Source: Shigella phage ESh32. Taken from it: a stretch of DNA of 64,000 nt. The notes below the pieces were generated by a model, which did not search any database, was not told the origin of the DNA, and saw only the letters and a list, made by a program, of their open reading frames with translations. The DNA is taken from the sequence record ON528742; one strand, 5' to 3'. Positions within the stretch are counted from its first letter, which is position 1. Every line of letters begins with the position of its first letter. Made by a program: the position numbers and the translations under genes. Positions 5,827 to 56,095 of the stretch are shown piece after piece.

Positions 5827-5834
5827 TATAAATA
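5827..5834 (+). promoter_or_regulatory. possible late promoter (TATAAATA)
   Basis: exact TATAAATA about 25 nt upstream of ORF 5860. Confidence 0.35.
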
Positions 5835-17702: not shown

Positions 17703-18088
17703 AAAAGCGTTTATTAGAAGACATTGCAGCTTCAAGTAATTCCAGTTTAATTAAAATTATTATGGCTGGTGAGGAAGATGATATGGAAATGCGTGGAAAG
17801 ATTCACGGCTGCGACGATTTAGATTTTAAACCTCCAGCATGGGATGCTATTATGGCTATGGTTGAACGACGTGAAAGAGCTTCTAAAAACGTTCCTAATT
17901 GCCCTGAATGCGGTACTGAACAAGTTCAGTTGATTAACTGGCGTAAACCAGAGCTTGAATATAAATGCCGTCAATGTAAACATAAATTCAGTAAGCATGC
18001 TCCGGAAATGGTTAAATTGCCTGACTCTACTGAGTTCTTTAAAGAACTTGTGAGTGTTCAACCAATGCCTAATAATATTTTGGATTAA
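17699..18088 (+). CDS. zinc-ribbon protein
   Basis: CPECGTEQ...CRQCKHKF four-Cys motif; ATGA overlap upstream. Confidence 0.55.
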
Positions 18089-38512: not shown

Positions 38513-38764
38513 ATGGAAACTTTAGTAGCAGGTTCAATTTTTATGGTTTTAGTTTCAGGTGTGTTGGCTATTATTATATACATGCTTCCATGGTTCATTG
38601 CCTTGATGCGTGGGTCAAAATCGACAGTAGGAATCTTTTTCACATCTTTACTGTTTAACTGGTCAATTATTGGTTGGTTTATTACATTTATTTGGTCAAT
38701 TGCGGGTGAAACTAAAAAGTCTGCACAACCAAATCAGGTAATTATCATCAGAGAGAAGGAATGA
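38513..38764 (+). CDS. imm: superinfection immunity membrane protein Imm
   Basis: 83 aa, two TM segments, position between 43 and 42. Confidence 0.75.
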   Translation: METLVAGSIFMVLVSGVLAIIIYMLPWFIALMRGSKSTVGIFFTSLLFNWSIIGWFITFIWSIAGETKKSAQPNQVIIIREKE

Positions 38765-38910
38765 AAAGCAAAATTATAGCAGTGTTGCTTTTAATCTTGA
38801 TGATTATAATAAGTATATACTATAGTGTAACGGTTCCTCTTATGATTCCAACTATTATTTTAGGTTGGGGTTTATTACTGTTACAAGTTAAATATGAATG
38901 TATCAATTGA
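38761..38910 (+). CDS. possible small membrane protein
   Basis: 49 codons read from sequence; ATGA overlap with imm stop. Confidence 0.35.
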   Translation: MKSKIIAVLLLILMIIISIYYSVTVPLMIPTIILGWGLLLLQVKYECIN

Positions 38911-44089: not shown

Positions 44090-44383
44090 ATGAAAAAATT
44101 TGTTTTTGCTGCAATTTTTGCTTTAGCTTCTTGTGCTGCTCAGCCTGCTATGGCAGGTTATGATAAAGATTTGTGTGAATGGTCTATGACTGCGGATCAG
44201 ACTGAAGTTGAAACTCAGATTGAAGCAGATATTATGAATATCGTTGAGCGTGATCGCCCTGAAATGAAAGCTGAAGTACAAAAACAGCTTAAGTCTGGTG
44301 GTGTAATGCAGTATAATTATGTTTTGTATTGCGATAAAAACTTTAATAACAAAAATATCGTAACTGAAATCACAGGTGAATAA
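44090..44383 (+). CDS. sp: spackle periplasmic protein Sp
   Basis: 97 aa with signal peptide; position between 41 and 61. Confidence 0.7.
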   Translation: MKKFVFAAIFALASCAAQPAMAGYDKDLCEWSMTADQTEVETQIEADIMNIVERDRPEMKAEVQKQLKSGGVMQYNYVLYCDKNFNNKNIVTEITGE

Positions 44384-44384
44384 T

Positions 44385-45017
44385 ATGATTTATTATATGC
44401 ACAAAAATCCACCGTTTAAATACGGTAAATTTCCTGATGCACAATGTTATAATATAACGCCTGATGAAAATAACCGTGGATATCTTATTGGCACAATTTT
44501 TGTAATTGTTAAAGATAACGAAATCGTTGCCTGGGCAGATTTTAAAGGTACAACACATGATGTTAATCCGGTGCCTTTCACATATTACAATATAATGGAT
44601 TTGGCATATGATTATAATTGGTTTAATCATGACACGTTGGCTCATATTGAAGGTGTAGGATTTGACATCTCTTATTCTAGCTACTCGTTGTGTCCTATGA
44701 GTCGGGCTCATAAAGAACCTGAATATTTTTCATTTAGGAAACGTGTAAACTTTAAACGCAACACAGAGTATGTCGGTGGAATCTTTGTTAAAGATAATCG
44801 AATTATTCGTATTAATTATCCTTTGAGCGTTAGTCAAAAAGATATTGATGTTGATTTAGATTTCACTGAAAATAATATTAATCATATTGCTTCTGTGTAT
44901 TTTGGTATCGATCACAAAATTGTAATATGTGGATATGAATTACCGTTTGAAGAACAGTCTAAAGTAAATGTTTCTATTGACGATCAAATTTTTAATGCTT
45001 TTATGAATAAAGGTTAA
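44385..45017 (+). CDS. hypothetical protein (shares C-terminal motif with next gene)
   Basis: ORF 44376..45017 (GTG 44376); ends ...SIDDQIFNAFMNKG. Confidence 0.55.
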   Translation: MIYYMHKNPPFKYGKFPDAQCYNITPDENNRGYLIGTIFVIVKDNEIVAWADFKGTTHDVNPVPFTYYNIMDLAYDYNWFNHDTLAHIEGVGFDISYSSYSLCPMSRAHKEPEYFSFRKRVNFKRNTEYVGGIFVKDNRIIRINYPLSVSQKDIDVDLDFTENNINHIASVYFGIDHKIVICGYELPFEEQSKVNVSIDDQIFNAFMNKG

Positions 45018-45018
45018 T

Positions 45019-45375
45019 ATGTATAGTTCTGAATTTTCATATTTAAAAATGGAAAAAATTTCATACGATTTTATAGATGAAAAGGTTTATTATAGTTTCC
45101 ATGAACCACGTTTTAATAGTGAGGTTGGGTTTATTGTAGTAAAAGACAATTTCATTTTAAAGATATATTCGGCATTAAAGGATTTTCACTACGAAAATAT
45201 TAACCTAAAATTTGATAAAGAAAACGTTCGTAATTGTGCAGTAACAATTACAGGAAATAAAGGTACGTGTGTTATGTTATCTGATGAAATTAATGATTTG
45301 CTAAATGATGCCGAAAAGGTTGCTATTCCATCTATTGATGACCAAATTTTTAATGCTTTTATGAATAGAGGTTAA
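45019..45375 (+). CDS. hypothetical protein (shares C-terminal motif with previous gene)
   Basis: 118 aa ending ...SIDDQIFNAFMNRG. Confidence 0.55.
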   Translation: MYSSEFSYLKMEKISYDFIDEKVYYSFHEPRFNSEVGFIVVKDNFILKIYSALKDFHYENINLKFDKENVRNCAVTITGNKGTCVMLSDEINDLLNDAEKVAIPSIDDQIFNAFMNRG

Positions 45376-45543: not shown

Positions 45544-46572
45544 ATGTCATCAATACCTTGGATTGATAATGAGTTTGCATATCGTGCATTAGCTCATTTA
45601 CCTAAATTCACACAAGTAAATAATAGTTCAACTTTTAAATTACGGTTTAGATGCCCTGTTTGTGGAGATTCAAAAACCGATCAGAATAAAGCTCGTGGAT
45701 GGTATTATGGTGATAATAATGAAGGAAATATTCATTGTTATAACTGTAACTATCATGCACCAATCGGAATATATTTAAAGGAGTTTGAACCCGATTTATA
45801 TCGTGAGTATATCTTTGAAATAAGAAAAGAAAAAGGTAAAAGTCGTCCAGTAGAAAAACCTAAAGAACTTCCTAAACAACCTGAGAAGAAAATAATTAAA
45901 TCTCTTCCGTCATGTGTTAGATTAGATAAACTGGCGGAAGACCATCCAATTATAAAATATGTAAAAGCTCGTTGTATTCCAAAGGATAAATGGAAATATC
46001 TTTGGTTTACAACCGAATGGCCTAAATTAGTTAATAGCATAGCACCGGGAACATACAAAAAGGAAATTTCTGAGCCTCGTCTTGTTATTCCAATTTATAA
46101 TGCTAACGGAAAAGCTGAGTCTTTTCAAGGACGTGCATTAAAGAAAGATGCTCCTCAAAAATATATCACCATTAAAGCTTATCCTGAGGCAACAAAAATT
46201 TACGGTGTTGAACGAGTTAAAGATGGTGATGTATATGTTCTAGAAGGACCTATAGATTCACTTTTTATTGAAAATGGTATAGCTATTACAGGTGGTCAAT
46301 TAGACCTAGAAGTTGTTCCATTTAAAGATAGACGAGTGTGGGTTTTAGATAATGAACCTCGTCACCCTGACACTATCAAACGAATGACTAAATTAGTTGA
46401 TGCAGGAGAAAGGGTTATGTTTTGGGATAAATCTCCCTGGAAATCAAAAGATGTCAATGATATGATTAGAAAGGAAGGTGCAACCCCTGAACAAATTATG
46501 GAATATATGAAAAATAATATTGCCCAGGGGTTAATGGCTAAAATGCGGTTATCTAAATATGCTAAGATTTAA
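45544..46572 (+). CDS. 61: DNA primase gp61
   Basis: 342 aa; zinc ribbon CPVCGDS...HCYNC; TOPRIM-like acidic residues. Confidence 0.9.
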   Translation: MSSIPWIDNEFAYRALAHLPKFTQVNNSSTFKLRFRCPVCGDSKTDQNKARGWYYGDNNEGNIHCYNCNYHAPIGIYLKEFEPDLYREYIFEIRKEKGKSRPVEKPKELPKQPEKKIIKSLPSCVRLDKLAEDHPIIKYVKARCIPKDKWKYLWFTTEWPKLVNSIAPGTYKKEISEPRLVIPIYNANGKAESFQGRALKKDAPQKYITIKAYPEATKIYGVERVKDGDVYVLEGPIDSLFIENGIAITGGQLDLEVVPFKDRRVWVLDNEPRHPDTIKRMTKLVDAGERVMFWDKSPWKSKDVNDMIRKEGATPEQIMEYMKNNIAQGLMAKMRLSKYAKI

Positions 46573-46769
46573 ATCAACCCAACTAAAGCAAATGCTAAAT
46601 CTACAAATGTATCAAGAGTAACTACTGGAATATTAACACCATGCGCAATTGCAATTGGTGATAAAATAAAGTTCCAGAGTAAAATTCCTACCATAGCAGA
46701 AATAGTAAAAGCTATACGTTTCTTATTACCTTTTATGGCATTAACAAGTGCCATTAATTTTTGTACCAT
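46569..46769 (-). CDS. candidate small membrane protein on the opposite strand
   Basis: 66-aa ORF, two hydrophobic helices; AAGGAGG 4 nt upstream of ATG on the minus strand. Confidence 0.4.
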   Translation of the reverse strand: MVQKLMALVNAIKGNKKRIAFTISAMVGILLWNFILSPIAIAHGVNIPVVTLDTFVDLAFALVGLI

Positions 46770-46782
46770 ATGTCCTCCTTAT

Positions 46783-46806
46783 TGCTTTATATATTTATTG
46801 TATAAT
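46783..46806 (+). promoter_or_regulatory. candidate MotA-dependent middle promoter for gene 56
   Basis: TGCTTTA, 11 nt, TATAAT. Confidence 0.5.
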
Positions 46807-46840
46807 TAATCTACTAACCCATGAATTGAAAGGAAAAATA

Positions 46841-47359
46841 ATGGCTTACTTTAACGAATGTTCACAACTGATTGAAGGCGCTGATAAAGCTCAAAATGAA
46901 TATTGGGATATTCTCGGTGATGAAAAAGACCCGCTGCAGGTAATGCTCGATATGCAGAAATCTCTGCAAGTTCGTTTAGCTAAAGATAAACCTGAATATA
47001 ATCGTCATCCTGATGACTTGGCTACTGCAGGTGAAGTTGTTGATTGGTTGCGTAATCAGAAAGATTATATTGACGATGAATTCCGTGAACTTCTGACTTC
47101 TCTTGGTGGTATGAGCAATGGTGAAAAAGATGCATCTGCTGTATGGAAACCTTGGAAGTCGCAGCATGGTGAACGTCGTGAAACTCTGATTACTGATTTG
47201 TCTCCACAAGACCAATTGGAAATTAAATTTGAAATGATTGATATTCTCCATTTCGTTCTGAACATGTTCCAAGGTCTTGGTCTTACAGCAGAAGAAATCT
47301 TTAAACTTTATTATCTAAAAAATGCCGAAAACTTTGCTCGTCAAGACCGAGGTTATTAA
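46841..47359 (+). CDS. 56: dCTPase/dCDPase gp56 (MazG-like)
   Basis: ORF 46748..47359; ATG at 46841 gives 172 aa MAYFNECSQLIEGADKAQNEYWDILGDEKDPLQ... Confidence 0.85.
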   Translation: MAYFNECSQLIEGADKAQNEYWDILGDEKDPLQVMLDMQKSLQVRLAKDKPEYNRHPDDLATAGEVVDWLRNQKDYIDDEFRELLTSLGGMSNGEKDASAVWKPWKSQHGERRETLITDLSPQDQLEIKFEMIDILHFVLNMFQGLGLTAEEIFKLYYLKNAENFARQDRGY

Positions 47360-47389: not shown

Positions 47390-47397
47390 TATAAATA
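47390..47397 (+). promoter_or_regulatory. late promoter TATAAATA upstream of soc
   Basis: exact TATAAATA about 30 nt upstream of soc ATG. Confidence 0.6.
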
Positions 47398-47427: not shown

Positions 47428-47673
47428 ATGGCTAGTACTCGCGGTTATGTTAATATCAAAACATTTGAGCAGAAATTAGATGGAAATAAGAAAATTGAAG
47501 GAAAGGAAATTTCAGTAGCTTTCCCTCTTTATTCTGACGTTCACAAAATTTCTGGCGCTCATTACCAGACATTCCCTTCAGAAAAAGCAGCATATACTAC
47601 TGTATATGAAGAAAATCAACGTGCTGCATGGATTGCTGCAAATGAAGATTTGTGGAAAGTAACTGGTGAATAA
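47428..47673 (+). CDS. soc: small outer capsid protein Soc
   Basis: 81 codons MASTRGYVNIKTFEQKLDGNKKIEGKEISVAF...; matches remembered T4 Soc. Confidence 0.85.
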   Translation: MASTRGYVNIKTFEQKLDGNKKIEGKEISVAFPLYSDVHKISGAHYQTFPSEKAAYTTVYEENQRAAWIAANEDLWKVTGE

Positions 47674-55591: not shown

Positions 55592-56095
55592 ATGATTAAA
55601 AATAATGCTGTTTATCAATTGAAAAAATTTGATGAAATTAAGAATTTTCCGGTACTGTCTAATACAGCTCATAATAAGTTTTGTGAACTTCTTGCTTTAA
55701 CTGGCGGATATCCTTTTACTGTTATTAGTGTTAATAGCGGAATTCTTATCGGCATGATGTATATTGAAATTAGAAACTATTATGGAATGGTGTCATCGCT
55801 TATTATTTATGAAAAAGATTTTAGTCTATTGACAGAAATTGAAAAAGAAGAACAGGAAAAATCCCATATTGATATGGATTTAGTTTCTATGTATGTGGCA
55901 CCAGTTGAAAAAATTGAAGACCCGACTGATTTGTTGTGTAAGGCAGTTTACATTCGTCGTCCATTCGCGAATCCGGTCGGCGGTTGGGTAACTGACCAGT
56001 GGATTGAAGATGGCGTTGAACTTCTTAATGTAGTTCATGCTGGAGAGTATTCTGTCGTTCCTCGCAGCGCAGTGATTAATGTTCGTGTAAGCTAG
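55592..56095 (+). CDS. hypothetical protein (paralog of 56169..56660)
   Basis: C-terminal ...GGWVTDQWIEDGVELLNVVHAGEYSVVPRS. Confidence 0.5.
   Translation: MIKNNAVYQLKKFDEIKNFPVLSNTAHNKFCELLALTGGYPFTVISVNSGILIGMMYIEIRNYYGMVSSLIIYEKDFSLLTEIEKEEQEKSHIDMDLVSMYVAPVEKIEDPTDLLCKAVYIRRPFANPVGGWVTDQWIEDGVELLNVVHAGEYSVVPRSAVINVRVS

Follow-up and report, generated by a model that had tools for sequence, protein, structure and literature searches.

In bacteriophage T4, the early and middle transcripts are all of a single polarity (Geiduschek and Kassavetis, PMC2988020). In addition, novel open reading frames (ORFs) almost always follow the direction of their neighbours, and late promoters are reported only ahead of genes orthologous to a late gene of T4 (Nolan et al. 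2006, PMC1524935). Here, a small ORF is described that is an exception to both generalisations of Nolan et al. It is a minus-strand ORF situated between genes 61 and 56 of Shigella phage ESh32 (sequence record ON528742) and was analyzed within a 64-kb stretch of this Tequatrovirus (T4-like phage) DNA, referred to as the window; positions are window positions unless stated. The closest described system is RB32ORF030w/RB69ORF029w (PHROG 2024), which is the same gene at the same position and in the same orientation between genes 61 and 56, with no sequence difference. The gene is already catalogued with its function unassigned; added here are a late-promoter motif, its spread over 8 genera, selection tests and a gap in the T4 and T2 annotations. 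We regard it as very likely that the small ORF is a genuine conserved accessory gene of the T-even phages (Tevenvirinae), encoding an inner-membrane protein of 63–69 amino acids (aa) that is most probably made late.

The T4 gene soc resembles the small ORF in being an accessory late gene within a block of early genes, with a late motif before a strong ribosome-binding site (RBS). In the window, soc carries TATAAATA at 47390 and its ATG at 47428 (38 nucleotides, nt), about 0.6 kb from the small ORF. The two differ in strand and product: soc shares the strand of the early genes and encodes a soluble capsid decoration protein, whereas the small ORF is an opposite-strand gene for a membrane protein. 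Imm, Sp and RI are, like the small-ORF product, T-even proteins of less than 100 aa at the inner membrane or periplasm. Their genes show early-strand polarity, and those of Imm and Sp are early, whereas the strand of the small ORF is used late only. When the ORF protein was compared by BLASTP with the Imm encoded in the window (38513-38761), no alignment was obtained at E<=100.

A preliminary description of the locus had proposed a 66-codon minus-strand ORF with a strong RBS in an otherwise unidirectional gene block. Its coordinates and length were verified on the sequence, as were the AAGGAGG located 4 nt 5' of the ATG (complement of 46774-46780) and the overlap of the ORF 3' end with the gene 61 stop. 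The elements are as follows:

46569..46769, minus strand: coding sequence of the 66-aa small membrane protein, ortholog of RB32ORF030w/RB69ORF029w, PHROG 2024
46774..46780, minus strand: Shine-Dalgarno sequence AAGGAGG, read from the sequence, with a 4-nt spacer (ACAT) to the ATG at 46769-46767
46569..46572, both strands: TTAA, a palindrome in the sequence shared by the stop codons of the convergent gene 61 (plus) and the small ORF (minus)

Within this palindrome, the stop codon of the small ORF occupies 46569-46571 and that of gene 61 occupies 46570-46572, while gene 56 starts with an ATG at 46841 on the plus strand. The 66-aa product is MVQKLMALVNAIKGNKKRIAFTISAMVGILLWNFILSPIAIAHGVNIPVVTLDTFVDLAFALVGLI. 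From 46400 to 46950, the window is 100% identical to Salmonella phage vB_SenS_Jbel, its closest relative, and 97–99% identical to RB32, wV7, AR1 and hundreds more. In the Jbel annotation, the small ORF is the sole opposite-strand coding sequence among 54 features in 32 kb, which bears out the proposed unidirectionality of the block. Moreover, it is the only case in the 64 kb where a minus-strand GGAGG is followed by an ATG opening an ORF of more than 2 codons. Such features, together with the codon score given below, exceed chance expectation. GGAGG or AGGAGG precedes the ATG in all 11 lineages compared.

A tblastn search with the ORF protein matched 692 phage records, and the ORF was intact (coverage of at least 80%) in 686 of them. 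Both the ORF and its RBS are conserved in related phages. Identity was 90–100% in Tequatrovirus and 44–56% in Mosig- and Gaprivervirus; with a divergent ortholog as the query, 945 records were matched. Orthologous loci were taken from 8 Tevenvirinae genera (Tequatro-, Mosig-, Gapriver-, Dhaka-, Kanagawa-, Jiaoda-, Moon- and Gelderlandvirus). In all 8 genera, the primase gene (61) is met at its 3' end, on the side of gene 56, by a convergent ORF of 63–69 codons, and the 4-nt stop overlap with the primase gene also occurs in the Mosig-, Dhaka-, Moon- and Gelderlandvirus orthologs. No ortholog was found in the Krisch-, Slopek-, Biquarta- and Hadassahvirus loci examined.

The pairwise ratios of nonsynonymous to synonymous substitution (dN/dS) were 0.15–0.42, with a synonymous divergence (pS) of 0.6–0.9, i.e., with synonymous sites at or near saturation. 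In an ungapped block of 34 codons from 10 lineages, the mean nucleotide identity at codon positions 1, 2 and 3 was 0.50, 0.74 and 0.35. A codon model trained on the long plus-strand genes of the window scored the ORF frame at 0.328 bits/codon, compared with 0.37 ± 0.09 for real plus-strand genes and at most 0.04 for the other five frames at this position. The next-best of the 54 minus-strand ORFs reached 0.094 bits/codon, and the small ORF was the only gene-like one among them. Since the ORF is intact both in DK-13, where a homing endonuclease lies between it and gene 61, and in T4, where dam lies between it and gene 56, it is independent of its neighbours. Judged by these sequence comparisons, the small ORF is a real gene that is conserved among T4-like phages, with its protein under purifying selection.

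The opposite view would be that a chance ORF, itself unexpressed, was spread by automatic annotation and owes its conservation to the terminator and promoter signals that overlap it. In favour of this view, the ORF is missing from the curated T4 and T2 annotations, AT-rich phage DNA holds many antisense ORFs of similar size (the window alone has 54 on the minus strand), and a plus-strand hairpin overlaps the ORF 5' end. However, the length of 63–69 codons and the residue motif W-N-x4-P-x5-G-x3-P-x3-[DE] are retained at 30–55% identity across the 8 genera, substitutions follow codon positions, codon usage is gene-like, and the hairpin is not conserved beyond Tequatrovirus. We consider this explanation largely refuted and its probability close to negligible.

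The present analysis adds a late-promoter motif on the ORF strand, which the preliminary description did not mention. The T4 late promoter consensus is TATAAATA; 32 of 50 listed promoters match it perfectly and 9 of the 50 carry A at -13, the commonest natural variant in that listing (Geiduschek and Kassavetis, PMC2988020). Late promoters have a -10-type motif close upstream of the RBS and ATG, and a -35 element is not required. At the small ORF, a motif of this kind was present 23–30 nt 5' of the ATG and upstream of GGAGG in all 11 lineages. NATAAATA occupies -23 to -30 in nine of them, the remaining two carry ATTAAATA, and the same pattern was seen at 10 of 10 loci from IMG/VR. The site in the window and the variants by lineage are:

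46792..46799, minus strand: predicted gp55-type late promoter AATAAATA, an A(-13) variant of TATAAATA, with its first base 30 nt 5' of the ATG
TATAAATA, perfect: lineages ZX14, kv_tblp5 and MY742
AATAAATA: lineages of the present window, G53, WG01 and KpV477
GATAAATA: lineage T4
CATAAATA: lineage DK-13 (Gaprivervirus)
ATTAAATA: lineages Merlin and UTK0003

A mutated version of AATAAATA, AATACATA, is named for a promoter test. The distance of the motif to the ATG is constant while its position relative to the MotA box of the gene 56 promoter varies: it lies between the box and the -10 element in this phage, beyond the box in G53, and overlaps the box in DK-13. In T4, the motif lies in unrelated (non-homologous) DNA beside the dam 5' end and survives the dam insertion. 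Since the ATG distance is kept in differing flanking DNA, the motif tracks the ORF and not its surroundings.

The heptamer ATAAATA was seen 6 times on both strands of the window, compared with 39.7 ± 5.1 occurrences expected from first-order Markov simulations, i.e., it was depleted about 7-fold. The sites are at 5827(+), 19928(+), 47390(+), 46799(-), 55811(-) and 1518(-). Four of the six lie 30–38 nt before an RBS and ATG, namely those of the small ORF, soc, a 70-aa ORF and a 157-aa ORF (37 nt), the last of which we take to be gene 49 (endonuclease VII). No ORF follows the sites at 55811(-) (CATAAATA) and 1518(-) (AATAAATA), which might be starting points of late antisense RNAs.

Since T4 early and middle transcripts share one polarity, a gene on the opposite strand can only be late (PMC2988020). 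A scan of the minus strand from 46200 to 47000 revealed no sigma-70-like site. From the motif match, its conserved ATG distance, the depletion of the heptamer, the lack of a sigma-70-like site in this interval and the strand, we infer gp55-dependent late transcription, and the small ORF is very probably switched on late in infection. The late transcript would start near 46785-46786, giving a leader of about 17 nt. A differential RNA sequencing (dRNA-seq) study of T4 gives, among its figures, 150 T4 start sites, 22 of them antisense (bioRxiv 10.1101/2024.04.04.588121). It might be argued that the gene is real but has a sigma-70-type promoter and is expressed in the early or middle period, as the late motif of this phage departs from the consensus at -13. 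Apart from the missing sigma-70-like site, this is countered by the perfect TATAAATA at three orthologous loci, and such timing appears highly improbable.

With regard to the protein, the preliminary description had proposed two hydrophobic helices, of which one stood. Residues 19–41 form a firm transmembrane segment by hydropathy, whereas the C-terminal stretch (about residues 49–66), which is hydrophobic over 15–18 residues, holds two acidic residues and scores about +4.3 kcal/mol on the Hessa scale, is doubtful as a membrane span. In the AlphaFold2 (AF2) model, with a mean predicted local distance difference test (pLDDT) value of 79, helices span residues 2–12, 16–42 and 52–63. All 5 Lys/Arg are within residues 1–18, and the only 2 acidic residues are both in the C-terminal helix. 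Across genera, no or almost no variation was seen at Trp32, Asn33, Pro38, Gly44, Pro48 and Asp/Glu52. Based on the positive-inside rule, the N-terminus is expected to be cytoplasmic, which would place the conserved loop and the acidic C-terminal helix in the periplasm or make them re-entrant.

The course of events would be as follows. After the onset of replication, RNA polymerase modified by gp55, gp33 and gp45 would start leftward at AATAAATA (46792-46799, minus strand). The short leader would carry AAGGAGG, and the transcript would extend antisense into the gene 61 3' end. The translated product would insert with its basic N-terminal segment in the cytoplasm and a single transmembrane helix at about residues 19–41, bearing Trp32-Asn33 and Pro38, while the H/Q-G-x-x-L/I-P loop and the short acidic-hydrophobic C-terminal helix would either be exposed at the periplasmic face or turn back into the membrane. 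A polar Asn within a transmembrane helix usually mediates helix–helix contacts, and the conserved mid-membrane Asn suggests association of the helix with itself or with a partner. For this reason, our leading guess, held loosely, is that the protein is a small modulator whose transmembrane helix pairs with a second copy or with a different membrane protein, and which in this way influences an envelope process late in infection (exclusion, lysis inhibition or the timing of lysis). The gene is probably dispensable under laboratory conditions.

The protein ends in ...AFALVGLI and has no Lys/Arg past residue 18. Since the sequence past Arg18 offers no tryptic site, it would be released as a hydrophobic peptide of 48 residues. 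Standard (shotgun) proteomics would very likely miss the protein, which is a plausible reason why it has been unseen so far.

A small size, two hydrophobic segments and apparently late synthesis might also indicate a holin or a pinholin-like lysis protein. These properties are shared with class II holins and pinholins (e.g., phage 21 S68), which have 60–70 aa, two hydrophobic segments and late expression; at least one transmembrane domain is present (residues 19–41), and the UniProt entry for the OE5505 ortholog is named 'Holin'. In contrast to these proteins, the small-ORF product has no basic, charged C-terminal tail, since all of its basic residues are N-terminal, and it lacks both a lysis-cassette context and a family match. 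Its neighbours encode primase and dCTPase, with no endolysin or other lysis gene adjacent. No Pfam or NCBIfam holin family was matched at E<=10, and Foldseek gave no holin match below E=7.9. Furthermore, the T-even phages already have a holin, T, which they use together with antiholin RI, and we know of no rapid-lysis mutants that map at this locus. A role as holin is hence considered unlikely.

Database searches placed the gene in an established family. PHROG 2024 ('unknown function') was matched over the full length (hmmscan E=1.5e-31, residues 2–66 on profile positions 1–65 of 65). RB32 names the ortholog RB32ORF030w, 'similar to RB69ORF029w', with identity of 97–100% in Tequatrovirus; in most relatives, i.e., hundreds, it is called 'hypothetical protein', and in HMD-9 'putative membrane protein'. 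T4 (NC_000866/AF158101) encodes the ORF at 17738..17938 of its own record, on the plus strand and stop included, where it is 97% identical and unannotated. The T2 reference also encodes it unannotated. Scans of four divergent orthologs against Pfam, NCBIfam and PADLOC gave no match at E<=10. A phmmer search of 1.84 billion representatives gave 9 matches, the genuine ones being phage orthologs or fragments of 41–72 aa. Three long proteins (P0032, P0036 and P0037) were discarded as spurious owing to many repeated stretches, those of P0032 and P0036 being tandem repeats. A Foldseek search with the AF2 model against BFVD and PDB returned orthologs only, with the best non-ortholog at E>1. In the literature, searches for the locus tags, T4 ribosome profiling and small ORFs, and T4 start-site maps found no paper on the gene, and the HIDEN-SEQ T4 transposon paper does not mention the locus.

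Several points weigh against a genuine late gene for a membrane protein. The ORF is missing from the T4 and T2 reference annotations. To our knowledge, it was never hit in classical T4 genetics, so any phenotype would be subtle. No homologs of known function were found among the searched databases, so the proposed function is a guess. The second helix is marginal as a membrane span. The late timing is deduced from sequence. Moreover, Tequatro-, Mosig-, Gapriver-, Dhaka- and Jiaodavirus have a base other than T at the start of the motif, and the in vivo strength of variant late promoters was left undetermined in the source of the consensus (PMC2988020).

The plus strand carries two further signals near the small ORF:

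46783..46806, plus strand: MotA-type middle promoter of gene 56, with the MotA box TGCTTTA at 46783-46789, 11 nt and TATAAT at 46801-46806
46735..46764, plus strand: terminator-like hairpin ATGGCATTAACAAGTGCCAT followed by TAATTTTTGT, 3' of gene 61 and inside the first 12 ORF codons

The candidate MotA-type promoter, TGCTTTA-11 nt-TATAAT, had been described as overlapping the region upstream of the ORF, and this was verified. The sequence at 46782-46806 (TTGCTTTA, 11 nt, TATAAT) agrees with the consensus (a/t)(a/t)TGCTT(t/c)A, 11–13 bp, TAnnnT. Its counterpart in an alignment with T4 is ATTGCTTACATACTCAAATGATATAAT, upstream of gene 56, and it is the homolog of the T4 gene 56/oriA-region promoter; in the T4 record, oriA is located where gene 56 starts, and a middle promoter is annotated at the corresponding site in phage SA20RB. 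In T4, compared with this phage, about 0.9 kb (dam and its upstream region) is inserted between the RBS region of the ORF and the gene 56 promoter.

The hairpin consists of a stem-loop at 46735-46754 with 8 pairs and a GC-containing stem, as in an intrinsic terminator, followed by the T run TAATTTTTGT. A terminator pattern scan gave 3 terminator-like sites compared with 0.3 expected, and the SA20RB annotation marks the corresponding hairpin as a terminator. Read in the ORF sense as ATGGCACTTGTTAATGCCAT, it is encoded within ORF codons 6–12. It was present in the window and T4 only, i.e., in Tequatrovirus, with no equivalent in the other 9 lineages compared. Since it is confined to Tequatrovirus, the hairpin is a lineage-specific overlay and not the cause of the ORF conservation.

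On the ORF strand, the scan found no canonical terminator but only weak AT-rich hairpins, except in KpV477. In this Klebsiella phage, the small ORF and the primase gene are 18 nt apart, and a GC hairpin (GGGGC-TTTG-GCCCC) occupies this gap just after the ORF stop (locus position 1392) and has the look of a bidirectional terminator between convergent genes. At about 46494-46545, there is an inverted repeat, AACCCCTG...CAGGGGTT, which has a loop of about 35 nt and is seen again in several genera. As a conserved RNA hairpin at the gene 61 3' end it was rejected: RNAalifold gave no consensus structure, and 82 of 500 shuffles were as good. Since pair counting showed no covariation beyond shuffles, the repeat is probably a by-product of the conserved ATPEQ...AQGL coding.

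The preliminary description had offered two roles, a late-expressed small membrane protein or a convergent-transcription regulatory element. The former is supported by purifying selection in 8 genera, the late motif at a conserved distance and the strand polarity. According to the latter, late antisense RNA or convergent transcription would primarily damp gene 61 or the gene 56/oriA promoter, and the ORF would be incidental. The transcript would indeed enter gene 61 antisense, as the stops overlap and the ORF strand has no canonical terminator. In addition, the late motif sits in the MotA-promoter spacer in this dam-less phage, and since the MotA box covers the inferred late start site, the middle and late promoters cannot be occupied together. 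This mutual exclusion could matter at the middle-to-late switch, but it cannot be the conserved function, because the two promoters lie 0.9 kb apart in T4. Against a primarily regulatory role, the amino-acid sequence is under purifying selection with saturated synonymous sites, and the ORF, RBS and promoter are retained apart from gene 61 in DK-13 (homing endonuclease) and apart from gene 56 in T4 (dam). Besides, the KpV477 hairpin would block antisense read-through. Regulation as the primary function is not supported and was judged very unlikely, whereas a secondary antisense effect may exist besides the function of the protein.

Some further observations concern the neighbourhood. The gene 61/56 junction (46573-46840) is an insertion hotspot across T4, DK-13, ZX14, Merlin and KFS-EC, containing dam in T4 and a homing endonuclease in DK-13. 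In Kanagawa-, Moon- and some Klebsiella/Enterobacter phages, it holds an extra ORF of about 94 aa annotated as nucleoside triphosphate (NTP) pyrophosphohydrolase. In Krischvirus, an unannotated gap of 590 nt after the primase gene was considered as a site of the small ORF and rejected, as it holds a plus-strand HNH-like ORF instead (187 aa, unannotated in KFS-EC). Two tandem plus-strand ORFs at 44376-45017 (213 aa) and 45019-45375 (118 aa) share the C-terminal peptide IDDQIFNAFMN(K/R)G; they represent a 61.2-like duplication, and the RB32 annotation reads 'similar to gp61.2'. At 38761-38910 on the plus strand, a very hydrophobic ORF of 49 aa (MKSKIIAVLLLILMIIISIYY...) overlaps the preceding imm by 4 nt. 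It is hypothetical in Jbel and is another small membrane protein with no assigned role.

A bolder version of the favoured reading can be formulated. The small ORF would be an overlooked late gene and, over about 32 kb of early genes, the sole one on the opposite strand. Its Trp-Asn transmembrane protein would control an event at the envelope late in infection, be it exclusion, the timing or inhibition of lysis, or a counter to membrane-acting defence. In phages that lack dam, the late polymerase would also shut the gene 56/oriA middle promoter, and with it the origin, at the middle-to-late switch. In this full form, we regard the proposal as tentative and rather improbable.

T4 is the reference organism of the family, yet its curated annotation lacks this gene, and the ORF merits inclusion in the T4 and T2 annotations. 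By means of the ATAAATA depletion, late transcription units of T-even genomes can be predicted cheaply and fairly specifically. Little study has been given to small membrane proteins as a class, and a gene that is under purifying selection in at least 8 genera, with its position fixed and a predicted late promoter of its own, must confer some benefit.

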